Source: Bugula neritina (lineage: Eukaryota; Animalia; Bryozoa). From it: a stretch of DNA of 64,000 nucleotides. Below, in pieces: positions 3,801 through 42,799 of the stretch. Each line of letters starts with the position of its first letter. The stretch's first letter is position 1. The DNA is taken from the NCBI GenBank assembly GCA_964035545.1, contig OZ037766.1, positions 7,740,722 through 7,804,721 of the forward strand, read 5' to 3'. Both the position numbers and the translations under genes were made by a program. The notes under the pieces were generated by a model that was not told where the DNA came from, ran no database searches, and was given only the letters and a program-made list of their open reading frames with translations.

Positions 3801-4393
3801 AATTTTACTCGCTCGAAGAACTCATTAAAGCATAATTAAATTTTGGTTCTTCGCTACGATTTTCAATCCATTGTTTGAAAAGTTTTTGTCTGAATTTCTA
3901 CACGCAAATTGCGATTAAATGTTTATGTTGAGTTGTATTGGTACATTATTATTATATTATTCAAATTATTTGTGATTTACTAATATGTAAATTTCAGCTA
4001 ATGTTACTATTAGTATTATTTCTACTAGTCATAGTTAATACTTAATGTTATAGTTATACTAATACTTACAGTTATACTTATACTTATAGTTATAGATAAT
4101 ACTAATAGTAATAGTTAATGTTATGGTGAACTGAAAGTGAATATCATTCTCATTGTCATTGTGATTGTCGTTGTGAATATCATTGAAATCATCGTGATTA
4201 TCATTATCATTATGCTTACCTTATGATTACATTTGGTTTCATTAATAATAATAATGATGTAATCTTTATTAATATTAATATTATCATTATGATGATCCTT
4301 ATGGTTATTTACTTAAACTTATACTTATAGTTATTATAATTTATTATAAAATTAAATGTACTTGACTTATTATACTTATACTTATACTAATAC

Positions 4394-4699
4394 TGTTATA
4401 TTTTTCAGATTTAGGGTTGATATGCTATCCAGAGAGTCTATTTATCTAGTATAGAACTACACCAGGCTAAGTCGAGTGAACGAGTATATTTTATACACAA
4501 CTATACATTACAAAAACACGATACATTATTTCCAACAAGTTACACATCTAATCTATTTCACACTCTAGCTTCGACTGAGTTAGCAGCGGGAAACTACAAT
4601 TGCTGCTAACTATCAACTACGCTAATTGGCTATCCATTGTTCCGGGTCAATTACGCGACCCTACATGTTGTGCTGCTGGTAGTTCCACGAACCACCACA
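4394..4699 (-). repeat. 3' LTR of Gypsy element 1 (306 bp)
   Basis: Direct repeat of 11592-11897; plus-strand termini TGTT...CACA. Confidence 0.97.
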
Positions 4700-4710
4700 C
4701 CGCCCCCACC
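4700..4710 (-). other. Polypurine tract of Gypsy element 1
   Basis: Minus-strand GGTGGGGGCGG directly abuts the 3' LTR. Confidence 0.75.
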
Positions 4711-4988: not shown

Positions 4989-5776
4989 CTAGAGTCCTTG
5001 TTGGGCACGCCGGTGCTTGGCTTGGCATGTACGCAGTTTCCGTTTCATACGGCATACGGATCCCTTGAGCTGGAAGAGTCCTGTTGTAGTGTTAAGTAGG
5101 TCTGGTGCCAGCTGGGTGAACTCTTCTTGTAATCGTAGGAGGCGTTCTTCTACTGTGGCTAGTCGTACCGGGTCGGGGGACGGTGTCCGTCTGCGGCGTA
5201 AGGGTGGACTGGGGGACCTGGTCCGTCTCTTCGCCGGGGTAGGGGAGATCTCTCCTTCTTCTGGATATGTAGTTTCCTCGGGGGTGTATGTAATTTGAGG
5301 GCGGTCAGACACCAACGGGGATTGTTGGCGGGCGTTGTCTAACACACGTTGGAACCCCGAGGATAGAACGGCTAATAGCATGGCCTTCTTTACCAGAGGT
5401 CGTATATATGTGAGGAACTCCGGGTACAGCTTAGCGTCGACCACATAGTTTTCTCCAGGGAAACAGCCCGCCGCTCTGTGTCTGGTGACGGGGTAGGGAT
5501 ACACATCATTGTACCCGCAGGGGCAGAAGGTCAGTAGGAGATGAGCATTGACGTGTAGTTTAAGGGAGCGGTGGGAGGCGCAATCTTCACCACAGATCTG
5601 GCATCTCGTCCGTCCTCTGGACCCCCAGGCTGTTTCTATTTCTTCTTCGGTTTGTGGAGACACCCACCGCCAACGGCGGCGTAGTGGCTCAGGCCGGTCG
5701 CCACTAGTATAGTCCTCCGGATACGGAGCGGGAAGTGTTCTATCCCGTACCCTGGTTGTAGCGGGTCGAGTGTAAT
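4989..5776 (-). CDS. ORF3 of Gypsy element 1, predicted second exon of a spliced protein (exon 1 = 11518-11560, 276 aa in total): C2H2 zinc finger + CxC..H..C motif + Arg/Ser/Pro tract + coiled coil
   Basis: The frame is open from the acceptor TTTTTCAG| (5777-5778; branch point TACTAAC 5796-5802) to TAG at 4989, with no ATG near the 5' end. Motifs: CQICGEDCASHRSLKLHVNAH, CPCGYNDVYPYPVTRHRAAGC, KRRTRSPSPPLRRRRTPSP, heptad-rich RLATVEERLLRLQEEFTQL. It lies inside the LTR boundaries. Confidence 0.8.
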
Positions 5777-6089
5777 CTGAAAAAGTTTCAACAGTGTTAG
5801 TACATTACACTGCTGTGTTGTCAGCTTGAACAGCTTGGCAACTCCTAATTCAGTTACCTCGTAGAGATTAATGATAGTGAATAGTCAGATAGAACCGTAT
5901 TGCAATGAGATTATGAAAATCTCTAAGTCAAACTGAGTTCTTACTACGGTATTCCACTAACCTATCTCCAGCTCGATTGACTCAGTGAGTCAGAGCTGAG
6001 CGATGCAATCTAGTTTCGTATTAAGATATAGTTAACTCACCCCACGATCTGTCGTCGTAAGACATACTGAATATGTGAAATGGTTTGAA

Positions 6090-9000
6090 CTACTGCTTAG
6101 AAACACGTCTACTCTTGACTGCATCAGCGTATGAAAAGATCGAGCAACGTGGTTGGGGTGCGTGATTAAGACTTTGTGCACCCGGCGGATGAATTTTGTT
6201 TCTACTTCCGCCGATACAAAAGTTGATATTTCCGTGGTGTTGACAACTCCCACATTTGCTCGATTCTTTTCTCGTACGGTTTTCCCCTAGACTTTCATGT
6301 GTGCCGCTTTTAACGCAGTCACATACGAAGTCTTTCAAGTATGCGGGGGGTTGCCTCGTACGCTGTCCCCTCTCTAGGGGGGGTGACACGCTTGCCGGTT
6401 CGTTAGTAGGGGCCTCTAATGGCGTCTCTACTTCACCGTCAGCAGTCACCTCTTCTTGTTCTCCGGATGGAGCCCCTCCCTCCGTGGGGGTTTGCACTTC
6501 CGGAACCGGCTCGGTTTCTGGAAGTGATGGAATCAGACTTGGCGGTGGCGGACACGCTTCTGTTGGTAGAAGCTGCCGCTCCTCTCTCACCAAGTTTTCT
6601 TCCCGCGGTATGACCACTTCGTATTCAGGTCCATGCCGCCGTCGCCCGCGCGTCGTTGTCTGCCTCCTGGGCTCTAACAACGGGGGGGCTTCTCCCACTC
6701 CGTCAGGGCTAGCCCAATACGGTTTCAAGCGAGACTCATTCTGGATAGACACCTGTCCTGAGCGCTCAATCTTGTACGTATGATTGGGCATAGCCTCGAC
6801 GACCACGTAGGGGCCTACGAACTTAGGCTTCAGCTTATCAGCCTGTCCGCGGCGCCTACGGTAATTGACCATCCACACCTTATCTCCCCTTTGATAGAGA
6901 GGTGGTTCATCGGAATCTTCGTGCCGCACCTTCCACTGCTGTTGGCGCAGTATATCGTGTGCGGCCTTCATCCGTTCCACTAGTTCACTGGCATACTCGT
7001 GGACTGAGTTATCTTGCTCTGGAACGTGATAGGTGAGATGGTCAGGGACACGAGTCTCTCTCCCGAGCATCAAGAGGTTTGGGGTCTCACCAGTACTGGT
7101 GTGTGGGGTGCTACGGTATGCACGCATGACTTGCGGCAACACCGTATCCCATTCCTCTTGACCTCGTCCAAGGAGGAGACTCCGGAGCGCATCACCTAGC
7201 ATCCGGTTGTTGCGCTCCACCACCCCGTTACCTTGAGGGTGGTAGGGGGTGGTCCTGCTCTGATTTACTCCCCAGAGGTGGCAAAGGTCGCTCATCAGTT
7301 GAGACTGGAATTGAGCGCCTTGATCAGAGTGTATCTGTTCGGGAAGCCCAAAATAACAGAATACATGTTGGTCTAGTGCCCTGGCCACTGTTGGGGCTGA
7401 TGCATCTGGGATAGCCAGAGCATCCGCCCACCTAGTAAAGTGGTCGGTTAGTACTAGGATCCAATTATTGCCTCTGGGGGTCATGGGCATGGGTCCGACC
7501 AGGTCTACAGCGACTACCTGCCAGGGCCTACCAGCATATAGCCTCCGCCGTCCTGCTTCACAAGGGGGGCGGCTATGCTTACTGGCCTGGCAGATCTCAC
7601 ACTGTTTGACTCTGAGCCGGACGTCACGCTCCATCTGCGGCCAATACCACCGGAGTCGTAATTTGGATATCACTCGCTTGACCCCTGCGTGGGCCTGCTT
7701 GTGAGTATCCCAAATCAACTCACGGCGGATGGCTGTGGGGCAGACTACCCTCTTCCTTCCCGGGTGTCTGCCGCTGGCAGCTAGAGAGATGGTTAGCAAC
7801 CCATCCTGCCCGATCCGCAGCGAGTCCCAACGCTGACAGTATAGCCGGAACTCGGCGCATCCCTGTCGTATGCGTTCCTCGCTGGGTCGTCGCCCTTCCT
7901 TTTTGGCCCGGTAGATGTCTGCCACGACTCCAGGCAGCTCTTCTTGGAGCTTCTTCAGCTCTCGAACATTACCGGCCAGTACAGGGTTGGCGCGGAGGTT
8001 TTGTACATCCTCCGGGGACTCGTCAACTCTTTGCCTGAGTTGACCTTGATCCCAGTCAAACGGTGCTCCGTGATGAGCCAGCGTCTCCAACTCACATCGT
8101 GGGGGACCTCCATCCCTCCTCTCGATGTTGAGACACTGTTTGCAACCTCCGTCAGGTCGGCGACTCAACCCATCCGCATTGTTGTGTCTCTTGCCCGGTC
8201 GGTGTTCGATCCGGTACGAGAATTCAGCTAAGATTTCGAGCCACCGGGCGACCTGACTAGAGGGCTCTGCTCTCCTGCACAACCAGATCAGCGAGGCATG
8301 ATCCGTACGCAGCCGGAACTTCCTGCCATATAGGTATGGTCTGAAGTGCTTCACTGACTTGATTACTGCCAGCAGCTCCTTGCGGGTAGTGCAGTAATTT
8401 CGTTCAGCGGGAGAGAGAGACTTGCTGTAGTAGGCTACTACTACCTCTCGGCCTTCCTGCACTTGTGACAGCACAGCGCCAACATTCTGGTCACTGGCGT
8501 CCGTGTCTAGGATGTACTCCAGAGTGGGGTCTGGGTAGGCCAAGATGGGCGCCGTTAGGAGGCAGCCCTTGAGGCGGTCGAACGCTTCTTGTTCGACTGG
8601 AGTCCACTGCCACGTCACTCCCTTTGCGGTAAGCCGGTTTAAAGGCTGGGCTATGCCCGCAAAGTCTGGTATGTATTGTCTGTAATACCCTACCAGCCCC
8701 AAGAAAGCCCGGAGTCCGGTCAAGTCTTGGGGGGTGACCCAGTCTTCTACTGCCCGTACCTTTTCGGGATCCGTTGCCACGCCGTTTCGACCGACAACGT
8801 GCCCCAGGTACTTGACCTCCGGCTGCAATAGAGCGCACTTGGAAGGTTTGAGCTTAAGACCGGCACCTCGGAGTCTCTCGAAAACCTCCTGCAGACGACT
8901 GACATGTGTCTCGAATTCTGGAGAGATTACGATGACATCATCGAGGTAGACCAGCAGTGTCTTCCAATGGAGTCCGCTAAGGACTTGTTCCATCAGCCTC

Positions 9001-10658
9001 TGGAAGGTGGCTGGGGCGGAGGTTAACCCGAAGGGCAGCACCTTCCACTTCCACAGACCGTCCCGTGTGATAAACGCCGCTTTCTCTTGGGCGTCGGGAC
9101 TCAGAGGAACCTGCCAATAGCCGCTTAGCAAGTCTAACGTACTGAAGTACTTGCTGCCGGCTAGGGCGTCCAATGACTCGTCAATACGAGGTAGAGGGTA
9201 GGCGTCCTGTATGGTTACGCTATTGAGTTTGCGGTAGTCCACACAGAACCGCCAACTGCCGTCTTTCTTCCGGACCAGTACGACTGGCGAGCTCCACGCA
9301 CTATGGGCGGGCTCTATCAGTCCCCGGTCCAGAAGATCCCGTACTTGTCGGCTAACCTCCTTCTCTTTCTCCGGCCCCAGCCTGCGTGTGGGCTGCCGGA
9401 CAGGGACTGTCCCTGCAGTCAGCGGTATTTCGTGTCTGACAATTCCAGTCAGTCCCACGTCATGCTCTCCGCTGCTGAACACATCACCGTAGTCGCGTAG
9501 TAACTTGGCCATAGCTTGGCGCTCTCTGTTACTCGCGCAGCCACCACTGGCTGTTTCGTATAACTCCCGGAGATGTGTTGGGACTGCCCCTCGTCCCTGA
9601 ATAGGGTGTCGAGGGAGTGCCTCTGTCGCATCACCCAGCGACGGGCCTACGTCTCCCTCTTGAACAGAGTGAAAACGGCCCAGCATCGACCCAGCCGGGA
9701 GCTTGATAGGCTCGGTAAAGGGGTTGACGCACTGCACTAAGATCTCCCCTTGCTCAGTCAGCTGATTCAGACTGCTGGCAAGTTGGATCTTTCCATGCGC
9801 GCCTTCAACCACCCCGAGTCCAGAGATCCGGCTACTATTCACCCTGCAGTGAATGGTAGCCCGGGAGCGGCCTGGTATGGTACGGTTGCGTACCACTTGC
9901 ACACCTCCCACTAAAAGGCAGCCGAACTTGTCGACGCAGGCGAGTTCCCGCCCGGACATCATCATTGCAGATCTGCTAAAATCTATGTGACATCCGTGCC
10001 GTTTAAGGAACGGCATCCCGAGGATAGCATCCTCTTTGAGCTGACTGACGATGAACGTCTCTTGGATCGTTTGATCGCGGACTCGTCCCGTCAGCTCAAT
10101 TATACCATAGAAGGGAAGGCACGACCCGTCAGCTAGGGTGCCGTATTCCCCTTCGTATGCTTCCATCTCGCCCCTGACCCTAGCACTGAGGGTGTCGAAG
10201 AGTTGGCGGCTTAAGAGGTTTGTGGTACAGCCCGAATCAATGAGAAAAGTAACAGCTTTGCCTTCCAGTTTACCGGGCAAGAAATAGCTGTTCCCATGGG
10301 GCTGCACCTGAACTCTCCCTTCAGGCCTTACTCTCGCAGGGAGTACCTCCCTCGCTTTGGGTCGCGAAGGAGGTCTCTTGGGGCGGTGATAGGTAGGCCT
10401 CGGGGGTGCCGAGGCTGAATTCTCAGCTACCTTTGTGTGCTCCCATCCAGATTCTTGGACTTGTAGCCCTGTGAATCTGTTGTGAAGGGGCATAGAAAAG
10501 GCAGCCGCGGGGCGAAGCCCTTTGCTGGTCCGTCGCGGCTGTTGCCACTGTTGGTTGCCAGTACGCGGTGCCCGTCTGGGTGACCTGCGTTTCTTCTTCC
10601 CTAGAGGTTTCGTCGGCCCGCGGAAGGTGGGAACATCTGCGGGCCGCGGTAGTTTAAC
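6090..10658 (-). CDS. pol: Gypsy pol polyprotein (protease, RT, RNase H, integrase), entered by -1 frameshift from gag
   Basis: FLIDSGC (aspartic protease), WRFCVDYRKLN, LPFGL and YLDD (RT), TDASD (RNase H), HKQAH...CEIC (IN zinc), VDLVGP/SDQG/VERNN (DDE), GPY. The ORF track shows 6090..10718 uninterrupted. Confidence 0.96.
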   Translation of the reverse strand, partial: VKLPRPADVPTFRGPTKPLGKKKRRSPRRAPRTGNQQWQQPRRTSKGLRPAAAFSMPLHNRFTGLQVQESGWEHTKVAENSASAPPRPTYHRPKRPPSRPKAREVLPARVRPEGRVQVQPHGNSYFLPGKLEGKAVTFLIDSGCTTNLLSRQLFDTLSARVRGEMEAYEGEYGTLADGSCLPFYGIIELTGRVRDQTIQETFIVSQLKEDAILGMPFLKRHGCHIDFSRSAMMMSGRELACVDKFGCLLVGGVQVVRNRTIPGRSRATIHCRVNSSRISGLGVVEGAHGKIQLASSLNQLTEQGEILVQCVNPFTEPIKLPAGSMLGRFHSVQEGDVGPSLGDATEALPRHPIQGRGAVPTHLRELYETASGGCASNRERQAMAKLLRDYGDVFSSGEHDVGLTGIVRHEIPLTAGTVPVRQPTRRLGPEKEKEVSRQVRDLLDRGLIEPAHSAWSSPVVLVRKKDGSWRFCVDYRKLNSVTIQDAYPLPRIDESLDALAGSKYFSTLDLLSGYWQVPLSPDAQEKAAFITRDGLWKWKVLPFGLTSAPATFQRLMEQVLSGLHWKTLLVYLDDVIVISPEFETHVSRLQEVFERLRGAGLKLKPSKCALLQPEVKYLGHVVGRNGVATDPEKVRAVEDWVTPQDLTGLRAFLGLVGYYRQYIPDFAGIAQPLNRLTAKGVTWQWTPVEQEAFDRLKGCLLTAPILAYPDPTLEYILDTDASDQNVGAVLSQVQEGREVVVAYYSKSLSPAERNYCTTRKELLAVIKSVKHFRPYLYGRKFRLRTDHASLIWLCRRAEPSSQVARWLEILAEFSYRIEHRPGKRHNNADGLSRRPDGGCKQCLNIERRDGGPPRCELETLAHHGAPFDWDQGQLRQRVDESPEDVQNLRANPVLAGNVRELKKLQEELPGVVADIYRAKKEGRRPSEERIRQGCAEFRLYCQRWDSLRIGQDGLLTISLAASGRHPGRKRVVCPTAIRRELIWDTHKQAHAGVKRVISKLRLRWYWPQMERDVRLRVKQCEICQASKHSRPPCEAGRRRLYAGRPWQVVAVDLVGPMPMTPRGNNWILVLTDHFTRWADALAIPDASAPTVARALDQHVFCYFGLPEQIHSDQGAQFQSQLMSDLCHLWGVNQSRTTPYHPQGNGVVERNNRMLGDALRSLLLGRGQEEWDTVLPQVMRAYRSTPHTSTGETPNLLMLGRETRVPDHLTYHVPEQDNSVHEYASELVERMKAAHDILRQQQWKVRHEDSDEPPLYQRGDKVWMVNYRRRRGQADKLKPKFVGPYVVVEAMPNHTYKIERSGQVSIQNESRLKPYWASPDGVGEAPPLLEPRRQTTTRGRRRHGPEYEVVIPREENLVREERQLLPTEACPPPPSLIPSLPETEPVPEVQTPTEGGAPSGEQEEVTADGEVETPLEAPTNEPASVSPPLERGQRTRQPPAYLKDFVCDCVKSGTHESLGENRTRKESSKCGSCQHHGNINFCIGGSRNKIHPPGAQSLNHAPQPRCSIFSYADAVKSRRVSKQ

Positions 10659-11560
10659 CCCTGATTTAGGAAGGGACAATATCGGCGGAAATGTCCTTGA
10701 TTTCCGCACTCCCAGCAAAAACTGACTGTTTCTCCCTGTGGCGGCGCCGATGGCCGCATGGGCTCAGGGGCGGTACTCACTGGGTTTTGCGGTGTCAGTG
10801 TTGCTATCAGCTTGGCTAGCATGTCCGTCAGTTGAGTGACTTTTGATGCCGTCGCCAACTGGGACACGGCAGCCGCGGCGGGGGTTTCCTCCCCTTGTCC
10901 CGCGGCCGTGTCTGCGCGGTCTATCTCCACTTGGCGGGAGCTTCCGCGACTTTTATGCATTTGGTTAGCTAGGAGGTAAGCTTCCCCCTCAGTCAGAGCA
11001 TCTTCAACGGTGGTGACTCCCCTAGCTAGAAACTGGTGGTGGAGACCCAGATCGTCGACAGATGCTATGAAAGCGTCGAGGGTGTACCTCTCGCGGTTGA
11101 CTGGGGGCAAGTCGCTGTACGCGATCTGTGCCAGCTTCATGACCACGGCGGCATGCTCCCGCAGCGGGGTGCGGGGATCACGCCGCAACCTCTGTAATCG
11201 GGCCCTGGCATCTGTAGCCGAGAGGCCAAAGCGGGCCCGCAGAGAAGCAAAGATATTATCAATGTCTACGCCCAGCCCATAGGGCTTGGCTTTGTCCATC
11301 AATGCCATTCTAAGCTTCAGCAGGGCCACCCTAGGGGGCCACTGAGCGACGTCCATTACGTCGCTAAACTCTTGAATAAATTGTTCCACCTCCTCTTCAC
11401 CCGTGAAGGTGGGCGCCTTTAACCTGTAGCGGTCTTCAGCTAGTTCTCGCGGAACCCTTCGCTCTTCTACTACATGGTTAACAGGCATTGTCTCTACAGC
11501 ATTGTCTCTACGCTCACCTTCGATTGCCGGTGGTTGAGTTTCAGCATTTTCAGTCTCCAT
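10601..11560 (-). CDS. gag: Gypsy gag (capsid + CCHC zinc knuckle)
   Basis: 319-aa ORF starting 13 nt after the PBS. LKAPTFTGEEEVEQFIQEF capsid-like start and CWECGNQGHFRRYC knuckle. Confidence 0.93.
   Translation of the reverse strand: METENAETQPPAIEGERRDNAVETMPVNHVVEERRVPRELAEDRYRLKAPTFTGEEEVEQFIQEFSDVMDVAQWPPRVALLKLRMALMDKAKPYGLGVDIDNIFASLRARFGLSATDARARLQRLRRDPRTPLREHAAVVMKLAQIAYSDLPPVNRERYTLDAFIASVDDLGLHHQFLARGVTTVEDALTEGEAYLLANQMHKSRGSSRQVEIDRADTAAGQGEETPAAAAVSQLATASKVTQLTDMLAKLIATLTPQNPVSTAPEPMRPSAPPQGETVSFCWECGNQGHFRRYCPFLNQGLNYRGPQMFPPSAGRRNL
10614..10658 (-). other. -1 programmed ribosomal frameshift signal (G_UUA_AAC + 5-nt spacer + GC stem-loop)
   Basis: pol is in the -1 frame relative to gag. 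Heptamer GTTAAAC (10652-10658) is in gag phase. 8-bp stem CGGCCCGC (10639-10646) / GCGGGCCG (10614-10621). Confidence 0.75.
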
Positions 11561-11572
11561 CTTGGATGCACT

Positions 11573-11590
11573 ATCCCACCGCTGCCACCA
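11573..11590 (-). other. Primer-binding site, tRNA-Leu
   Basis: Minus-strand TGGTGGCAGCGGTGGGAT, 1 nt inside the 5' LTR, complementary to the metazoan tRNA-Leu(AAG/UAG) 3' end ATCCCACCGCTGCCACCA. Confidence 0.85.
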
Positions 11591-11591
11591 C

Positions 11592-11897
11592 TGTTATATT
11601 TTTCAGATTTAGGGTTGATATGCTATCCAGAGAGTCTATTTATCTAGTATAGAACTACACCAGGCTAAGTCGAGTGAACGAGTATATTTTATACACAACT
11701 ATACATTACAAAAACACGATACATTATTTCCAACAAGTTACACATCTAATCTATTTCACACTCTAGCTTCGACTGAGTTAGCAGCGGGAAACTACAATTG
11801 CTGCTAACTATCAACTACGCTAATTGGCTATCCATTGTTCCGGGTCAATTACGCGACCCTACATGTTGTGCTGCTGGTAGTTCCACGAACCACCACA
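11592..11897 (-). repeat. 5' LTR of Gypsy element 1 (306 bp)
   Basis: Direct repeat of 4394-4699. Confidence 0.97.
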
Positions 11898-13797
11898 ATA
11901 CTTACAGTTGCAGTACATGTACTTAGTACTTTTAGTAATAAAAATATTGAAGATTGCTTCTGGTTATCAATTTCATTATGCACTAAATCTCATCATAATC
12001 ATAATGCTAATACTAGTAATAGTACTAGTAGTAGTAGTAATACTAATAGTAATGTGAATAGGTAAACTTTAAGTTAATCACTAATTACAATGTTAAACTT
12101 AATCATAATGTAGAACTAAATGTGGCCTAATTATAATGGTAGTGCTTTAAGTTTAAGCCTTTAAGTTGAACTTACGTCCTACTTTTTTATTTTTATTTGT
12201 AATTTTGTTGTTACATTAGTGATACTAATAACTAACAACACTACTATAAGCAGTGTTGTTAGTTATTAGTTATACTTATAGTAATGTTAATTGTTACAGT
12301 TATACCTATTAACATATAGTTGTACTTATACTCAAATTATAGCCTATTTAAGTATTTAGTCTTACTCTTACAGCTGATTTGATTTAATTTTAATTTAATT
12401 TATTATGGTTTGCATTTTCTGTGTTACAATTTTTAGTTTCATTTTAATCTTCATTAATAATGTTTGTATGTAATTTACTATGTATGGTAATAAATTATGA
12501 AACGGAAATGATCAAGTTTCTTTTTAATGGCTGTCTTTTAGCCATTAGCATTTAGTTAAAATTGTTAAAAGTTTGTTGTTCCTGGGTAGGTCAAGTGTGC
12601 TGTTACTAATACTGGTCTTTAAGTGGATATTACTCATTATTATTATTAGACTACTTCTACACTAACATTTATTTAATCAGAAACTGGAACAATAAAAATA
12701 AAATAATTAACTGTAACTTGAAATTCTAGTTCTAAGTATTAGATTTAAGAATCATAATGTTATCAACATTTTTTTCATCAGATATTGTTACTCAGGTATT
12801 ACTTCTAGAACAATTAGGCTCTGATAGTTGTTTACTCGTTCATAGTATACTCAGTAAGCAGACATGGTAGCTGTGTCTATAGTTTTTTGCTGATAATAAG
12901 GCATAATATAATATTTGTGTGATAATTCAGCTGTAGTAGAACTGTACTGTAAAGGTTTTTAGTTTTTATTTGATTTTTTTAATTGAAACTCTTAAATATC
13001 TATTGAAATGGACATAAGACTATAAATTTGTATATTTCTGTGAGCACCTATGGAACTAAGAGAGTATAACTGTAGTTGTCAATATCATGGTTTCACTGTG
13101 TCTCATTCCTATAAAAATAGTTGAGATGACTGCATCGGCTTGTATTTTGTATGAGAAAAAGCAGCTATTTGTTTAATCTGAAAACTAGTGTTTTCCACGC
13201 TAACCATGCATGAATTTGAGCTTGTAGGCCTACGTTGAAATTGAACTAGTTTTGTTGGCTAATTTTATTAAAAGTTATACACCATTGCTATAGCTACTAT
13301 ATAGATATACTACAGTTAGTATAAGGGAAGTTGAGGTGATATAACCTTGCCCTTTGTGTAAGTGCTTCACCAGTACATTATATAATCGCACAAGAATAAA
13401 ATATTCTGCTAAAAGTGTAATGGTATTCATTTTCAGTAGTTTCAAGTTTTGTGTTTGCTAATAACGGGCTCTAAACTAATTCTCTTATTATACAGCTTAT
13501 GCAGTCAACCTTTCTTATTGGTTTTGCTCATATGTTATGTTTGTTATGTTTTTCTATGATTATAATTTTATCTTTGAAAAGTATAGTAACTTTGCATTCA
13601 TTTAAAAATGCACACCTAATAAATGTAAACACCAATAGAACCTGGTTTAGAGAGGAACATATGCATTTTGTCATCCAATATTGAATTTTACTTTTTTATT
13701 GATAAAATTTGAATTAGAAATCACATTTTTTATGTTATAAGTGTTTGGTAAGCTGGTAAGTGTTGAATCAGCTGACTTGTGTTCACACAGTTATTAA

Positions 13798-16700
13798 ATG
13801 GATGGTACGGAGTCAGTCCGCTCTGGTAGAAGTGAGAGAAGTCATCGCAGTCATCATAGTCATCGACATCACCACAGTCAAGGCAGCAGAGCGGACTCGC
13901 ACACTGACTCGCATAGACACCACAGGAAGCATCATAGACACAGAAGCTCTCATCACGACTCCTCCCGTCTTCCTGATGAGAACAGATCTGTCTCTATACG
14001 ACTGCCTACATCAGAAGATACACAGCAACTGACCAAAAACGATCATGTGGGCATACAAATCCTCCCACAGGTTTGTTGTAACTTCTCATTGGTTATATCT
14101 CTGAAGCTAAAATTAACTTTTAGACTTTTTAAACGGCATTTTCCAGAGTTTAAGTTGGATTGTAAGCCTGTAGTTTATAGTAGTTGGTGGTTGGTGGATT
14201 GAAAATACAAACCCTAGCATGTCTAGTGACTAATAAAGTAAATAATGCATATTCTCATTGAGTAAGCATCGGTTTTTAGAGTATCCTAGATACTATTCAG
14301 GTATCAAAAGAAATCGATCAGCTAAAATATAGCCGTGCTATTCGAGTAGCATTGCCAGGTTGAATTTCACTCTTAGTGAAAGAAGCATTGATTTCTGCAC
14401 GGATATTGCAGTTATGAGTGAAAAGCTTGTATACATGATAAGATCATGGTTTTCTATGTCTTCATTCCATTGAAGATTAAATTAATAATATATCATTTAA
14501 TGAGCTAGTAGTTTCAGCATTTTCATGTTGTGTTGTCAGCTGGAGTGAAATATGCAAATTATGATATATATAAAGTAACATTATGCTAAGCCTAGGGCCA
14601 CACTGTGCGTATTTTCGCATGCGAAAATTAAAATCACGCGTAGCAAAGGTGTCCACTGTAGCGTCAGTGATGCGTGATAAATAAAGCTTTCATTTTTAAA
14701 TCGCACTCGCTTTCAATAAAACGCAATTTGCTGGAATATAGCACTAAATAGAGAAATTGGGTTCGCTGAATAGCTACCAGCCAATTAGGTGACGACGACA
14801 GAGACGTTTCGCACCTGCGTTGAAAATGCAGAGCGACAAGTGCGAAGGTTTTCTCAACGCGCACAGTGGACACCTTTGCTACTTGTGATTTCAATTTTCG
14901 CATGCGAAAATACGCGCCGTGTGGCCCTAGGCTAAAGGCGATGAAGCGTGTGCACTGATGTTTGCTGCTTGTAGGATGACCATTGGGCAGACAACACCAC
15001 AGCTGTCACTAGCGAGACCGGCTGGAGTGACATGGATGATGTCAAGATGACGACTAGTGAAGCTATGGAGAAGTCGGTTGGACTCAACTGTTCCCGACGC
15101 TATGCAGGCTCTGTGGTGACTGGCTTCATCGCCACCATAGCTTTCTTCTCGCCTATTGCAATGATTGTAATACCACACGTTGTGCCCAATATTGGACTCG
15201 CCGACCTTCACTGTAGGCCCGATTGCGAGGGTTACATCATCAGTCTGATTGTCAAATTGCTCATCCTACTTATTGGATCGTGGGCTTTGTTTGTTCGACG
15301 GCCTAAGGCTACAATGCCAAGGTCATTTGTGTTTAGAGTGGTCATAATTGTGTTGCTCTTTGTGCTCAGTTTCGCCTACTGGCTATTCTACGTCTTCAGA
15401 CTACTTAGTATACAGAGCGTGTCGACCGGCTTGGGCTCATCCGACTTCAAGACTGTCGTCCTCTTTGCCTCTAGTATGGTTGATTCACTCATATTCATCC
15501 ATTACGTGGCGATTATACTAGTAGAAATACGACAATTACAGACTATATATACTATCAAAATACTCAGATCTCCTGATGGTCAAAGTAGAACATACAGCAT
15601 TGGACAACTTAGTGTGCAAAGGGCTGCAGTTCTCTGCCTAGAGTGGTACTACAGGGACTTCCCTGTTTACAACCCGTACTTGGAGAATGCTATACATCGA
15701 AAGTCTAACAAAGTTAGCCAGGTGTGTTTTACTGAATGTCCATAAGAGCAGTGCTTTAGTATTTCAGTCGTCAGTACTTGGTAGTCAGTACTTCGCTAGT
15801 TAGTACTTTATTAGTTAGTACTTCAATACTCAGTGCTTTAGTAGTCAGTATTTTAGTAGTCACCACTTCAGTAGTCAGTATTGGATAAGTTAGTACTTCA
15901 CTAGTCACTACTTCAGTAGTCAGCACATAGACAGTAGTGCAGTTTAGCCACTAGACCCCCTCTATACTCATGCAGCTGTCAACCCTCACTGCTCGTTTAA
16001 ACTGAAAGCCTTATTGTTTGTCTAGCTCAGATGCAATGAATATAGTAATTTCATTAATTGAAACTCACAATGTGGATGTTATGAATGTTATTGTTTGTGT
16101 GCCTACTTGTTTGTCTACTTGAATACCAGTGACTGATAGAAGAAGATATACCACTGCCCCAATACAAATACTTCTCCATCAGCCTCTATCACACTACATT
16201 GTTGTTTGTAGTCCAACATGTCAGCAAACAAGTACAAGGTTTATGACGTTGACGGGCCTCTGGGTGGCCCTGCTGGTGGTGAATCCTTAGCTGAACAGAA
16301 ATCTAAAGCAATTTTTGCAGCTGCAGCTAGAAGACGGGATGCAGGACACAACGAAAGGTGTGGCCTTTTTAAACATGTGTGTTTGAGTAGCCCGTTGTTA
16401 TATCATGTGCAACTTTGGTTTTTACATCAGGTAAGGCACCAGAATTTTCGACTCTTTATGTAGAGTACATATCTATTTGTGTATTGAGAAAAATATATTT
16501 AGTATGCTATTACAGCCAAACTATACTCTAGAGTTAAACAAATTTTCCACAGGCTCTTCTTAGCCTGCAGGGCAGTCTGACGTGAGCAGCTAGAGTAGCT
16601 AATTTAGACCAGTGCAGCTCCAACTAACTTTACTCAATGTAGTCTTCTCAAATTTTGTTACCGGCTATGTGATTTTTAAAAGTACATTGCGCAGAACTTG

Positions 16701-28639: not shown

Positions 28640-31600
28640 TTACTTAGACCCAAGGCTAGGAAACTCAAACTCATTGTCCATTTTTGGAGCAGATCTTTCT
28701 GATTTTTGAAACCCACCGCCACCACTGCCTTTTCTAAATTTACGATCAAACCCACCACTTCTAGGTGGACGAGAATTACCAAAGCCTCTGCCACGGCCTC
28801 TGCCACGTCCAGAACTGCTACCATGTATGTTGTTGTCAGTGTTGAACTTGATCTGAATATTCAGTTTATCCAGAGTAGACCTGGTGTCTTCAACCTAAAA
28901 AGTGAAGTGTTTGTAAGTGTGATTGAAGTGATTAGTGATTGGCAATCGATTAATGCATATATTAAATTTATTTCCTTAATTTTCAGTTTACGTGGTAAGA
29001 GCAAATGCATGGTATAAAAACAGAGTTTCACATTTTCCCATAATAAGAAAGACTCTAGGAGCTGTTGTATGAAATTCACGGTACAATACAAGCATTTGAA
29101 CAAAACAACCCATTGCAGTGAAAAGACAGGCTTAACTACCACTACAGCATGTAAATGACACTTTTATGCAGATTCAGTGCACAAGCTGACTATACAGCCA
29201 CTGCAGCTGTGAGTCCCATACATATAACTACATGTATAAATTTGTGAACCAAAGCAAAGTATTTAATAAAAGTGTTCACCTTGTAAGAATCATCATCAAG
29301 TTCTTCAGCATATTCTGAACTCTCCAGGCGTTTTCTTGGTTCTAAGGCTACGGTTTTCTTCCATTGCTTAGGATCCTCACCTTCACCAGCCAATCTAACT
29401 TTGAACTCTTTCTTAACTCTGGACGTGGCCTGTGAGGCCTTCCATTCATCAAGGGTCATTTCCAACTTCTCCGGTTCAACAGATTCTAAAGGTTCCTGTT
29501 CGTTGGTACTAAAATAAGAATGTGTTAATCTATAGAGAATCACTCTAAAACAGCACCTAAAGCCAACTTATACAATCTAAAGCAGCTAATTTTTTGAAAT
29601 TTAATAATTGATTAGTTGTACTGCACTGAGGTGCAAGCTCCACCACTAATAAAGTTAGCATAATTGGTAGTTGACTGTGACCAGATTTGGGTTTTTGTAA
29701 GGAATTTGTAAAATACAGTCTCCTCACATTCTTTCACTTAAAAATTGCACCAATTTAAATATTGTTCATTTACCAGCATTGTTGGAAAAAGCATTTAAAA
29801 ATGGAGGCTGCATTTGGTACAAACATATGCAGCTTTTGCAGGTTTACATTACTTATGTTAAGTGATATGAGTGTAAGTTCAATATGGCTATGTTTAAAGT
29901 AGGGTGTTAGAACAGAGCATTTAAAATCTCCCAGAATTGTACATAACTTATCCAGGAACTAATTAAGATATTACAGCGCAAGACAATATACTAAAAGCTA
30001 ACATTTCTTGGTCACCATCTTTGACTGCTCCCTCGGAGAGTTCACTGACATCAGCTTTAGTATCAGGTTGAGTAGAATTGTTCAGCTGCGCATCAATCTG
30101 CCCACCCCAGTTATGTGAGCCAAACCCCTCCTTCTTTTCTACAGCTTTAACTCCGGTTCTTTCAGAGCCGCTATGTCTGTCGAATCGCCTTGAAAATCCT
30201 CCTCGTGAGCCACCTCTTCCGCCTCTAAACCCAGCAGATCCTCTCCGTGCACCACGATGTCTACCATCATACATATGAAATGAGTTTACAAAGACCAAAA
30301 ATAATAAAGATGTAAAGTCAACATTCCAATACTTTGATCCAGCAAATGTGAAATAGTAACCATACAAACTTGCCCAAAACCACCAGAAGACTCCTTTTCA
30401 AACACATCATTTGAACGATTCTCTCGAAACCTGTTATCTATAAAAACAGGAATATAAGTATATGTTTTCTTTTGAGTATTCAATAAGTTGTCCTGTGAAA
30501 GAGTTCAATAGCAGTTGTATTAAAAATTATGAATTTGCTAAAATTTTAGTAGCCTTGAAATTAATTTTCAGAATTCCACTATTATGTCAGTAACAGCATT
30601 GAGTAAGCATAAAAGAGATAGCAGGACTACATTAGCTGAAGGTTTAGTTTACTTTATCTGCAGTAAGTATATACATGCACCACAAAAGCAAATTATAGAA
30701 TATAGTATTTAGCAAAACTTTTAAATAAGTTAATAGTAGTAGTACAAACACTTTTTTGAGAATTTTTGTTTTCAAATCTATCTTTAGAGCGCCCATAACT
30801 TTATATCAGTAAGCTGAGTAATTATTTAAATGCATGTATAAATGTATATATATTTTTACATAATAAATCAAATAAGTCTGACGAGTGAACATTTGACCAA
30901 ACTTTAAACTAAACTTAAACATAGTTACTGTTATATTGACCTATGTTACCAAGTACTAGTACGAGTATAATGCTATTACCATGGCTTAAGGCTATTAAGA
31001 ATAACTATTAGCTAAACTGGTACAAACCTCATCAACATGTAACTTATTTTCAACCAACCTGATCATCACATCTTACAAACCGACTAAAGCCTGATGTCAT
31101 TATTACCAACACTAACATTAATAGCATTACTATTAATTATATTTACACGTGTGGTGTTACTGTTACTGTAACTATTTTAATTTTTCATCACATCTGGTTG
31201 AATAATTAATATTATGAACATGATAATTTGAGTTTCACCAACAATAATTTCAATTTTAACTCACTATTAAATTGACTATAACTATTAGTATTGCCAATAG
31301 TAATACTTGTATTATTATGCTTATAGTTATACTTTTTATCACTTGTAAAAAATCACAGAGTATTTCAATTTGTAAGGGTTTTGAGTCAAACAGTGAAACA
31401 CAAATTTAGAAAATAGAAGCTAAATTAAAATTGTCAACCAAATAACCGTTTACTTTTTTATTTTAGTTTCATCAACAGAAAAAGTGAAAGTGGTAAAAAT
31501 TAAAAATGTAATTTTAATTTACCAACCCCTTTTTCCACTTTGACTTTCGATTTGATGTTGCGACATCTTTTGACCAGATTGAAATTGGTTACCCGTACCG

Positions 31601-31899
31601 CTGTCATTGTCAAGCTTATTTTGTGACTGAGACTTCTTCGAGTTGCCAAACTTTTCATTTTTAATTTTTGTGTTTTTGTTGTTTTTATTCAGATCTGATT
31701 GAACACGAGAATGATCCTGTGGGTGGTCCGCCACATTCTTTTTTTTCTCGGACTTGCTCTTACTCTTAGTCTTAGAGCTAGCATCTTGAAGTTGATCTTC
31801 GCCTCTTTTTATTATTTCAAAAATGTCAATGCTATCATCATCTTCATCATCAAGTATAAGCTGGAACCTGTTTTTAGTTTCTACGCTATACCCTGACAT
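28640..31899 (-). CDS. SERBP1: SERBP1/HABP4 (PAI-RBP1, vig) family RGG RNA-binding protein, ~392 aa. Exons 31527-31899, 30374-30437, 30003-30260, 29280-29508, 28640-28894
   Basis: N-terminal GYSVETKNRFQLILDDE; RRFDRHSGSERTGVKAVEKKEGFGSHNWG; EMTLDEWKA; RGRGRGRG; C-terminal APKMDNEFEFPSL. Phases are consistent if intron 2 is GC-AG. Confidence 0.92.
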
Positions 31900-34800
31900 A
31901 ATTTCAATCACTTTGTTGTCAAACAAGGGTGAAAAAAGCTTAAAGTATGTACACTACTTTTTAAAGCTTCGGTATTTCGAACCCTCCATTATTATCACCA
32001 TGACCATGAATGGTGGTTTTGATAAACGAATAAAACTAATAAACTTATTTTGTTATGTACAATATTTTTAATATGTAAAATATAAATTAAAATATTTCTG
32101 TTTGAAAATTTAATTCGATTTTTACATTAGTTTGTAATTTATTATTGTTGCTGAATTTTTCACTTTGACTAGACTATAGAGCTGAAAGTAGACAACTCCT
32201 GCTTTACTCAATTTGCATAGCTGTGTCGCAGTTTGTTTCAAGTCTCCAACAACGTAAAAAACCTGATGGAAAGAGTTTTAACAAGAGCTAAAGATTGTGC
32301 ATAAATATCAGCATGTTAGCAACATGATTTGAGCAGTTTTTATGAGCAGATGCTCTTCTAATGTATGCTCTTTCTGACATCTTGCCAGAATTCAAACCAA
32401 TGATATTTTGATAGTCTACAATTTACATACTATGTCATAATAGACCAGCACTCTAATCACTACTCTCTATGTAATGTTACAAGTGTTATTGTTTCACTTC
32501 AAAAATGCAATATCAGCATCAGCTGTATTCACAACCTATTATAATTATATTTTAATTGTTTTTACTACGTATGAGTTATGAGTTGGCCAAGAACATTGGA
32601 TAGTATATTTTATATATTCTATTCTTAGTCATTTGGCTATTATATAGAGTCTGCCTGCAGACTGATAGTTTGCACCAAGTTTAAATCTTTTTTGGATATT
32701 TAGATTCTAGTCAAACACTTAAAAAAGTTCATTGATTATAATTAGTAAGCAAAGTGTCAATTGCTATACTTTTATAAGAAAGCATGCTTTGGTACACAGT
32801 GAAGTAATGAGTACTATAGTATATAAATACTATTATAATTATAACTGCCAGCACCATTTATCAGAGTTATCTCTCCAAATTTTCATAGTTTCTAGGCCCA
32901 GCCATTTTTATCCTATAGCTGCATAGCACATAAATAAAAACAATTGCTATAAGCCTATAATGCTTTCTATGCACTATAAAAATATTATACAATTGACTAA
33001 TATAGCAAATTACCCATTAATCTCCATAAATTAAATTCACACAATTTTAAAGCATACTTACAGCTGCAAAGCTTTTTAAACAAACAAGAATGTAGACCTA
33101 TGTTACTGTAATGAAGAAGTCGGTTTATTTTCTTTAATAAGATATGGTTTAGAATTGTATTCCATTTGTAAAGCATTGTGAAAACTAGGAACTCTATAGC
33201 CCCCTAGAGAATTTAAACACTTGAACTGTTTAGGGACTGATGCTAGGACACTTTTTCAAATGTTGTTCAACTCATACAGTTGTGGTTCATTTGAGGATGT
33301 GCCAGAATAGCTGTACAATATTTGTCTTCTATCTGATCATTGTTACAGGCATCTGGTAATTGAATTTTAGAATGAATATTGAATTGTTAATTTAGGAGTT
33401 GTCTCCCTTAAACTGATACGGCAAAGGGTAGCTTACTAATACAAATGGTTTTATAATCAGCTCCGAGTTGGTGGTGAATGAGTGCATTACACTGTACATT
33501 GTCTGAGTTTTCAAAATAGTGCTTTTTATGCATTGTAGAACATGCATTTGCTATTTGATAAGATAAAATCCCTCTTAATGGCATTTGAGACAATAGATGT
33601 ATTTGTAAGAATATCAAAACTAACACTGATATGCTTCTATGTAACATGCAGTGCAATGTGTATTCACTCCTTTTTTTAATAATCTTTGTAATAGAAAAAT
33701 AGATAAGCTTGACTTTTGTTTGTAAAAATATAGGATGATTTAATCCTAAGTCCTATATAATATAGGATGCACACAGTTTAAACAGGGTTCCGTGTATATT
33801 ATTGTGATACACAGTAGTAACTCATGCAACGGCAGCGGTCAGCCGGTTAACAGCGCTGAGAGATATTGCTAATATTTACTCGGATAGATATCAACACACA
33901 TAGAATAATATTTACTCTGATTTATCATCATTACTCTCAATCATCTAGCTCATAAACTTTTAATTCCCTGAAACACTGTTACTAAAAAAGGAATTTACAT
34001 CAATATAATACATTGAAGCAACAGCCGATGGCTTCTGTAACAGGCTATCTAACTGGCTGTGCAGTTTGATATTCATCTCAATAGGTAGTATCTAACTGCA
34101 TAGTCATTTATGTAGGTGCAATAGTGAAAAATTTTTTAATAGCCTAAGTTTAATTTACTTTTCCAAATAGATTTTGGTTTGGGGGGCAGGTTGAAATAAC
34201 TTCTTTTGCTACATTTCTCATCTAGAACATAGGACTTTCTCAATTCCTCATTGCACCTATCTCACCGAGATGCAAAAAGCCAAACTAATAATCTGCTAGG
34301 GCTACTATTCTTTAGGGCTACTACATGCTCAAATTTACTGTATTTTCACCTCATTAACTTTTATTATGAAGGTATATAATATATAATCTCACAGTTAATA
34401 CTCTAATCAACATGCTATTACACCACGTGTGGACTCCATATTAGTGAGTCAAGTTCATTGTGTGTCATTAGAGTGACTAAGGCATATTTAACTGTCCTTG
34501 AATTTATTTCCTACTAGTTTATTTAGTATATGTTTATTGCTGACTAGTCACCCCAACATAAAGCTATTGTATAATTTAATAATGAGTGCTTACAAATAAT
34601 GATTATTGTCCTTAAGGCAATCAATAGAGCAGAGGTTAAGTCTGAGGCATGTTAGTACTATTGCAGCTCATTACCTGACTGGGAAGTTGTTTATAAGTGT
34701 TTGAGGATCACACAGTGCTTGCTGACACAGCTAAGGTTATACAAGGACAAGTTATATATCCGTAACTATGTAATGTTGAATAAGTAAGATGTTGATGTTG

Positions 34801-38300: not shown

Positions 38301-38915
38301 TGTCACAAAACTGTTGGTAGCAGTGTGACGAGTTCGAAAAGTCTGGTAGTCAGAAGTGTATAGACAAGTAGTATACAGCTTGCTAATCCAGTTGTGAATA
38401 AATAGAGTTGTGGATATAAGTATACTTTATTTCTCTAGTAAGATATGCACAGATGAATGTATTAAAATGAACTCCAAGAATGAACTCATAAAAAGGAACT
38501 GCGAGAATGAACTTATAAAAAGGAACTGCGAGAATGAACTTATAAAAAGGAACTGCGAGAATGAACTGAACTGTAAACACAACTGCCTCAGTATTTATAG
38601 TAAACAAAACACTCTAGAATATTCTCAAGCATTCCAGTATAGAAGATTCTAGTAGAAAACCTTCCCCACATGCCAATACTATTTATAGAAAATCAAAACA
38701 AAACAAAACATTGGAATTTCCATGGTTATTTCGCAATTATTGCGCAACACCTTGTTTACATTGCTGGGCAGTAGTTAACATGACTAATGAAAACAATAAC
38801 AATGAACAATGACCCATCTCTTTGATCAGTCTAGAATATTTATGAACATTCCTGTATAATCATTAGGAAAAACCTGGTAGGTCTATAGATATATGTACAC
38901 TCAGAATTTGTGACA
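38301..38915 (-). repeat. 3' LTR of element 2 (615 bp), containing three copies plus a partial copy of a 27-bp tandem unit (38478-38567)
   Basis: Direct repeat of 42185-42799. Unit GAATGAACTYATAAAAAGGAACTGCGA. Minus-strand TATAAATA (38680-38687) and AATAAA (38426-38431). Confidence 0.96.
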
Positions 38916-38961
38916 ACCCCCCATTCTAAGAGAAATTATCTTGATCATTTCTCCTAACTAC

Positions 38962-39090
38962 TTAAAATTCTGAGTCAATTCGGCTTAGATAATCAGCTCC
39001 AACATTGTCCTTTCCTTTGATTGACTCCACCTTGATTCTGAAGTTTTGTGAATACATATCCCATCTCATCACTCTGTTGTTTCTTATTGT
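38962..39090 (-). pseudogene. Out-of-frame C-terminal remnant of RNase H
   Basis: NNRVMRWDMYSQNFRIKVESIKGKDNVGADYLSRI matches the gypsy RNase H end (RW...GK.N..AD.LSR). It lies downstream of the integrase in a different frame. Confidence 0.85.
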
Positions 39091-42088: not shown

Positions 42089-42164
42089 AATGTCTCAACA
42101 ACTGTTAATTAATCCTGTGTATACTCACGTTGTAACTAATAACTTCCCTGTGTGCGACTGAGAC

Positions 42165-42182
42165 TTCCCGGAGCAGCCCCCA
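42165..42182 (-). other. Primer-binding site, tRNA-Pro-like
   Basis: Minus TGGGGGCTGCTCCGGGAA versus the canonical tRNA-Pro PBS TGGGGGCTCGTCCGGGAT (15/18), 2 nt from the 5' LTR. Confidence 0.7.
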
Positions 42183-42184
42183 AT

Positions 42185-42799
42185 TGTCACAAAACTGTTG
42201 GTAGCAGTGTGACGAGTTCGAAAAGTCTGGTAGTCAGAAGTGTATAGACAAGTAGTATACAGCTTGCTAATCCAGTTGTGAATAAATAGAGTTGTGGATA
42301 TAAGTATACTTTATTTCTCTAGTAAGATATGCACAGATGAATGTATTAAAATGAACTCCAAGAATGAACTCATAAAAAGGAACTGCGAGAATGAACTTAT
42401 AAAAAGGAACTGCGAGAATGAACTTATAAAAAGGAACTGCGAGAATGAACTGAACTGTAAACACAACTGCCTCAGTATTTATAGTAAACAAAACACTCTA
42501 GAATATTCTCAAGCATTCCAGTATAGAAGATTCTAGTAGAAAACCTTCCCCACATGCCAATACTATTTATAGAAAATCAAAACAAAACAAAACATTGGAA
42601 TTTCCATGGTTATTTCGCAATTATTGCGCAACACCTTGTTTACATTGCTGGGCAGTAGTTAACATGACTAATGAAAACAATAACAATGAACAATGACCCA
42701 TCTCTTTGATCAGTCTAGAATATTTATGAACATTCCTGTATAATCATTAGGAAAAACCTGGTAGGTCTATAGATATATGTACACTCAGAATTTGTGACA
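42185..42799 (-). repeat. 5' LTR of element 2 (615 bp)
   Basis: Direct repeat of 38301-38915. Confidence 0.96.

Follow-up and report, generated by a model that had tools for sequence, protein, structure and literature searches.

The 64,000-nt window (the whole stretch of DNA analysed here) contains on its minus strand, at 11897-4394, a complete Gypsy element of ~7.5 kb embedded in AT-rich host DNA. The two LTRs are identical, each 306 bp long and bounded by TG...CA (307 nt were compared, including one shared flanking G), and a 4-bp target-site duplication flanks the insertion, bearing out the preliminary description of an intact, freshly inserted copy. The LTR termini, target duplication, primer-binding site and polypurine tract, together with the PR-RT-RH-IN order of the pol domains, which is the Gypsy order, assign the element to Ty3/Gypsy. 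Behind pol lies a third gene, ORF3. The features, assigned from the sequence unless another basis is given, are as follows.

11898..11901, minus strand: target-site duplication GTAT, upstream copy
11592..11897, minus strand: 5' LTR, 306 bp, TG...CA, from its identity to the 3' LTR
11573..11590, minus strand: primer-binding site, presumably of tRNA-Leu type, one base behind the 5' LTR and kept in the spliced RNA
10601..11560, minus strand: gag, 319 aa, ATG at 11560, one CCHC knuckle (weak Pfam match, E 0.14)
11518..11560, minus strand: coding part of ORF3 exon 1, 14 codons + 1 nt (43 nt), common to gag (sequence and the join in relative P0023)
11512..11519, minus strand: splice donor AG/GTGAGC, cut at 11518/11517 in gag codon 15, Glu-Gly-Glu in the Gag reading
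5777..11517, minus strand: intron of the ORF3 mRNA, 5741 nt
6090..10763, minus strand: pol, 1557 aa stop to stop, PR-RT-RH-IN-SH3, in the -1 frame relative to gag
5796..5802, minus strand: branch point TACTAAC
5777..5778, minus strand: acceptor AG behind a T-rich tract
4989..5776, minus strand: ORF3 exon 2, 788 coding nt (sequence and homologues)
5307..5702, minus strand: double-zinc domain, consisting of an N-terminal W-x-S-x-x-T helix, a C2H2 finger, a CxC-x12-H-x3/4-C finger, a strand and three helices
5175..5231, minus strand: Arg/Ser/Pro patch, subfamily-specific
4992..5168, minus strand: C-terminal coiled coil and basic tail
4700..4710, minus strand: polypurine-tract candidate, G-rich, before the 3' LTR
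4394..4699, minus strand: 3' LTR, 306 bp (LTR comparison)
4390..4393, minus strand: target-site duplication GTAT, downstream copy

A protein search returned 129 Gag homologues. No further copy of the element lies within the window, and a related-locus search with ORF3, Gag and Pol returned no loci from a collection without eukaryotic reference elements. In the gag/pol overlap, a candidate -1 frameshift heptamer (10658-10652, minus strand) is followed by a GC-rich hairpin whose folding score is not significant (z -1.55). Elsewhere in the window, a second LTR element occupies 38301-42799, with LTRs of ~615 bp (300 nt were checked and are identical) and a 1033-aa ORF (42094-38993, minus strand) whose domains, read by eye, are Gag, protease and integrase without reverse transcriptase or RNase H; from its PR-IN order we take it to be non-autonomous and Gmr1-like. 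Three sets of host exons presumably belong to genes like Vang/Strabismus (13798-15745, plus strand), SERBP1/HABP4 (29190-31953, minus strand) and a Hey-type gene (55114-55635, minus strand), and the Gypsy insertion lies ~1.9 kb upstream of the first of these.

How is ORF3 expressed? The donor is the sole AG/GTGAG or AG/GTAAG on the sense strand of the element, and one of the three copies of TACTAAC sits 20 nt ahead of the acceptor. The 43 coding nucleotides of exon 1 and the 788 of exon 2, joined in phase 1 on both sides of the junction, add up to 831 nt, or 276 aa plus a stop. Exon 2 is preceded by an in-frame stop 10 codons upstream of the acceptor, and its first Met is residue 132, behind both zinc motifs; in this copy, therefore, the zinc domain needs the spliced start. 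The preliminary description had read this branch point, acceptor and phase-1 donor 43 nt after the gag ATG, and the 276-aa frame they open, and every coordinate holds.

That the splice signals are more than chance is indicated by the same join in a relative. P0023, which is 54% identical to ORF3, opens with 14 residues that equal the N-terminus of the Gag protein P0137 (14/14) and match eight other Gags at 13/14. After these shared residues, Gag continues with Gly-Glu and P0023 with Asp-His-Thr and on into ORF3, precisely at the predicted phase-1 junction. The joined form was found in one of the 209 family proteins checked, and the runner-up matched any Gag exon-1 peptide at 56%. Because the source contig of P0023 (5320 nt) is three times the size of an LTR-to-LTR spliced copy, which here would be 1763 nt, the simplest reading of P0023 is a genomic retrocopy of spliced RNA, in which both priming sites are kept. 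P0023 is also probably a short non-autonomous element, which would express ORF3 only.

Conservation at both splice sites points the same way. Among Gag homologues whose N-terminus is present (57 of 120, in two subgroups with an exon 1 of ~10 or ~14 codons), the Glu-Gly-Glu donor codons are retained in 48/56, 51/57 and 57/57 sequences, and after thinning to <60% identity in 9/11, 10/11 and 11/11, with values of 0.2-0.5 in the seven preceding columns. Three downstream columns are likewise conserved, so that donor-codon conservation alone is no proof of splicing. At the acceptor position, the 20 relatives whose frame covers it have Ser in 18 cases, Leu in one and Glu in one (P0023); Ser and Leu fit CAG or TAG in that frame, as judged from protein sequences and not from DNA. 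Taken together, the splice signals, this conservation and the joined form of P0023 support the original claim of a spliced, non-Env third gene behind pol.

Transcript collections were searched for the junction itself. RNA run X1, from a type of library that can contain DNA, yielded 20 low-depth contigs, one of them over ORF3 (5410-5628) and none with the joint, which is too thin to count either way. Run X2, whose kind is not on record, yielded 6177 contigs covering all 30 bins, and the 11518/5776 joint is not among the joints listed (15 of 49). Joints near 11572 in X2 were set aside since just 20-21 letters lie on one side. ORF3 and Gag matches fall on contigs of equal size (10472 and 19262), a hint of shared contigs that we did not count. 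As for the DNA just ahead of the acceptor, the 314-nt gap at 6090-5777 folds at z -2.4, and read-through translations in P0002, P0026, P0030 and P0046 suggest that the last ~100 nt before the acceptor are alike between elements.

The ORF3 product contains the motifs C-x2-C-x12-H-x3-H and C-x-C-x12-H-x4-C, the Arg/Ser/Pro patch and a C-terminal helix of ~50 residues. It has 72 close relatives (45-99% identity), and in 47 of these the mean identity is 79% for the coil, 54% for the zinc domain, 47% for the basic tail, 23% for the linker and 22% for the N-terminal stretch; the coil is thus the best-conserved part, and the zinc domain and coil, both named in the preliminary description, are the conserved parts of the protein. 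With a profile run against 1.84 billion representatives, the family grew to 122 matches at E <= 1e-3, many of them to the zinc region only. Across 80 aligned sequences, down to ~20% identity, the zinc ligands are nearly invariant, and the alignment retains the W, the T, both Cys pairs, three His, a Gly and a Val-Asp. Of 45 distant rows, 31 have a C-terminal coiled coil as judged by their own heptad score against shuffles, and with same-cluster duplicates removed the count is 25 of 36. The basic-tail motif occurs in 41 of the 72 relatives, and the pI is 9.0 for the zinc domain and 10.8 for the tail. We predict from these models and sequences that the protein binds zinc, forms a coiled coil and exposes basic surfaces. 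The Arg-Ser-Pro stretch, by contrast, is real in this copy but not a family trait: it is found in 3 of the 72 relatives, and its likeness to the hepadnavirus core does not therefore extend to the family, although some distant members have unaligned basic or Ser-Pro patches.

The absence of a signal peptide and of a transmembrane anchor was confirmed for this copy, in which the best 19-residue hydropathy window reaches 1.24 and the N-terminus is hydrophilic; nor does any Env family of Pfam match the element. It is accordingly very improbable, and already largely refuted, that ORF3 replaces Env, encodes a fusogen or is a neutral fragment captured from the host: the gene occupies the place of env, a hydropathy of 1.6 is reached in one window by 6 of 72 relatives and the domain occurs in host gene models, but this copy lacks the membrane features of an Env, and 72 relatives with domain-shaped conservation, a GC content like that of gag and pol and a distant element with the module in the same position argue against a one-off fragment.

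AlphaFold models the zinc domain as one compact 132-aa (~125-aa) unit at pLDDT 95.5 and pTM 0.88. Foldseek finds no match to it in the PDB at E <= 1e-3; a search of BFVD with the full-length model (pLDDT 65) likewise gave no match at E <= 1e-3. Among 48,161 chains, VIA-align found none that reached Z >= 5, which does not establish a new fold. These searches gave no whole-domain match to a solved structure, and the partial matches are weak and to finger pairs only: model residues 24-82 superpose on DNA-bound C2H2 pairs, with Kaiso at Z 3.7 (rmsd 3.0, 57 aligned) and SALL4 at Z 3.5. At the sequence level, 3 of 80 family members match generic C2H2 models of Pfam at 1e-3, the ESM Atlas returned just unnamed or generic C2H2 clusters, and Rfam gave no match for the element RNA. 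The pair differs from classical Kruppel-type tandem C2H2 fingers in that finger 2 is CxC-x12-H-x3/4-C and the inter-finger linker consists of five hydrophobic residues and is not TGEKP-like.

The module is also found outside the close subfamily. In P0329, RNase H and integrase regions that share 50% identity with Pol over 727 aa are followed, in one 1460-aa frame, by the domain (E 1.7e-26 against the family profile) and the coil, with ~400 low-complexity residues between integrase and zinc domain; the module thus takes up this position also in an element from the opposite side of the domain tree. A search for further long fused members, itself weak, gave none at E <= 1e-5. Among 30 clusters looked up, the organism is named in four, all of them bryozoan gene models (two from Watersipora subatra and two from Bugula neritina). 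The domain occurs once or twice per bryozoan model. It is present twice in the proteins P0216/P0316, P0261 and P0325. P0263, P0325 and P0326, from two bryozoan genera, have a common extra N-terminal region that is unrecognised (two were aligned), and by sequence these three look like a host family; some gene models may be element remnants. The host-annotated rows are scattered over more than one clade in the domain trees (AU p 0.0019, for 37 rows picked from 72 after the first tree and 138 columns), and this scatter would fit repeated domestication or repeated capture, in either direction. Recent capture of ORF3 from the host is disfavoured, since its GC content (0.558) equals that of gag and pol (0.56-0.57) and not that of the host exons (0.44-0.46).

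The intron of the ORF3 mRNA is structured throughout. Each of its 18 windows of 300 nt is more stably folded than shuffled sequence (z -2.2 to -4.7), compared with none of four windows at z <= -2.2 in exon 2, an LTR likewise unstructured, one of ten windows in a second element and none of ten in host exons (0/8 and 0/2). The structured stretch is gag-pol at 11297-5898 (minus strand), with a GC content equal to that of ORF3, and the strongest 120-nt windows are 7757-7638 (z -6.1) and 7337-7218. At 300-nt resolution there is no single peak of the kind expected of a response element within the intron, and the antisense strand scores similarly. This structure is compatible with a mark of the full-length RNA, for export or for packaging; because it is spread over the whole intron and the antisense strand behaves alike, it may serve packaging.

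What does the third gene do? We consider it quite probable that its product regulates the element in trans, from within the nucleus and by binding nucleic acid. More specifically, and as a tentative first choice reasoned largely by analogy, we propose that it acts on the element's own unspliced RNA and so enables the production of Gag and Pol. The short spliced ORF3 mRNA would exit the nucleus by default and be translated first. The protein would then enter the nucleus by way of its basic tail, oligomerise through the coiled coil and contact nucleic acid with the basic side of its zinc domain. Finally, by analogy with CERV and Rev, it would bind the structured intron of the full-length RNA, allowing that RNA to escape splicing or nuclear retention. 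We rank control of RNA export or splicing first on account of the CERV-like gene logic, the poor groove-reading helices of the close subfamily and the structured intron. Several points count against it. Splicing to a 3' gene needs no export factor by itself, as simple retroviruses and errantiviruses demonstrate; the joined form is a single record; an integrase and this domain in one frame, as in P0329, are odd for an early regulator; and, by sequence, finger 2 of the wider family has the residues of DNA-reading fingers. The leucine spacings of export signals fit the leucine pattern of the coil, which we attribute to the heptad repeat and did not count.

A close second, possible although we would not bet on it, is that the protein binds the LTR or internal DNA as a dimer and raises transcription, as a transactivator or anti-silencing factor with the logic of Tas/Tax-like or VANC-like proteins. 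Tandem fingers with a coiled coil have the layout of a transcription factor, the core superposes weakly on the Kaiso and SALL4 finger pairs, position +2 of finger 2 is Asp in 44 of 59 sequences of the wider family and position +6 is Arg or Lys in 35 of 59, and bryozoan gene models carry the domain. However, finger 2 of the close subfamily has Pro at +1 and +3 of its helix and finger 1 has Leu at +6, residues that, by the rules for helix positions, are unlike those of groove-reading fingers. Finger 1 is hydrophobic at +6 throughout the family, with conserved basic residues at +2, +3 and +5. The short hydrophobic linker also counts against the transactivator, and the structural scores are within the range of common arrangements.

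It is unlikely that ORF3 encodes a tether that works in trans in integration targeting or the pre-integration complex, with the zinc domain on DNA or chromatin and the coil on integrase or a host factor, for which the chromodomain fused to integrase provides the model. The order RNase H, integrase, domain and coil in P0329 would suit such a tether, as would the high conservation of the coil, which is expected of a fixed partner; yet there is one such fusion only, its low-complexity spacer is long, and what looks like a fusion may be genes that overlap in frame and have an internal acceptor. The search for long family members was negative, as described above, and in this element the protein has its own spliced mRNA. 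Slightly less probable still is a role in blocking a host restriction or small-RNA pathway purely through protein contacts, as an adaptor or decoy that does not itself bind nucleic acid. The atypical recognition helices of the close subfamily and the very high conservation of the coil are what an adaptor might display, and the host-annotated relatives could be the partners that are mimicked, but the basic residues of finger 1 and the basic tail suggest nucleic acid as the ligand.

Rev, Rex, Rec and Rem, and likewise Tas and Tax, are small, basic proteins that oligomerise, are translated from spliced mRNAs and influence the expression of their own element. ORF3 resembles them in this logic, but no sequence or fold link to any of them was found, nor a discrete response element in 300-nt windows. 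The Env proteins of errantiviruses are also expressed by splicing. As in errantiviruses and other env-carrying Gypsy elements, according to the part of PMC13524379 available, the third gene stands behind pol, and the splice signals and the joined form of P0023 indicate that it is spliced as well; ORF3s are typically expressed from spliced messages (PMC5408684, in part). Unlike an errantivirus Env, the product has no signal peptide, membrane anchor or glycoprotein character and is predicted to be an intracellular zinc protein. The 55-residue core superposes weakly on the finger pairs of Kaiso, SALL4 and ZBTB38 (Z 3.2-3.7), with sequence matches in finger 1, and differs from them in its CxC second finger ending in Cys, its short hydrophobic linker and the helices that wrap both sides.

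Accessory ORFs other than env are known from several lineages, here as described in the accessible parts of each source. The bdelloid rotifer ORF3s encode GDSL, DEDDy, CC and TM types (PMC5408684), and plant elements have additional 3' ORFs (PMC7264820); like ORF3, these are lineage-specific 3' extras for which regulatory roles have been proposed, but the word zinc is absent from the main text of both papers, and no such domain is described there. Similarly, sORF2 of the MDG1-group elements is an accessory non-Env ORF of an animal Gypsy element, but encodes a short transmembrane fusogen-like protein (PMC11952523), whereas the ORF3 product has no transmembrane segment. The available portions of PMC6238403, PMC8220671 and PMC13326412 contain nothing on the ORF3 family, and no description of its domain or of the element family was found in the literature searched, which was mainly the main text of open-access papers and not the repeat collections Repbase/Dfam.

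The closest parallel is CERV of the Caenorhabditis elegans Gypsy/Ty3 element Cer1, a non-Env ORF in the env position that is spliced to gag exons and is required for export of the genomic RNA (PMC10309623, in part; its discussion also summarises Rev). ORF3 shares with CERV the position and the splicing to a gag exon. CERV, a protein of 517 aa encoded by five exons, combines H, M and G-protein-like domains with a C4 loop, and its homologues are described as confined to nematodes (PMC10309623, in part); ORF3, with 276 aa from two exons and a C2H2 and CxC-H-C pair, is set apart from it by that description. A 'complex' Gypsy element is consequently no new category: of the preliminary proposal, the spliced, gag-sharing non-Env gene stands, but the concept has a precedent in CERV. 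What is new is the protein family, whose size and architecture are unlike those described for CERV. Its zinc domain is confidently modelled and covered by no Pfam family, and the host relatives may record domestication or capture.

Nuclear export and escape from silencing of intron-containing genomic RNA are known for very few env-less LTR retrotransposons. CERV is the clear Gypsy case found, and ORF3 adds another candidate, of different structure and with a precisely placed junction; it supports the idea of the env slot of Gypsy elements as a general accessory slot. A bolder reading, which we think somewhat less likely than not, is that an old and widespread animal Gypsy lineage is 'complex'. 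Its double-zinc/coiled-coil regulator would be translated from a spliced RNA from which reverse transcription can also yield helper copies; the regulator would sometimes be fused to integrase and would have been taken over repeatedly by bryozoan hosts. If so, Rev- or Tas-like control would have been invented independently outside retroviruses and nematodes.
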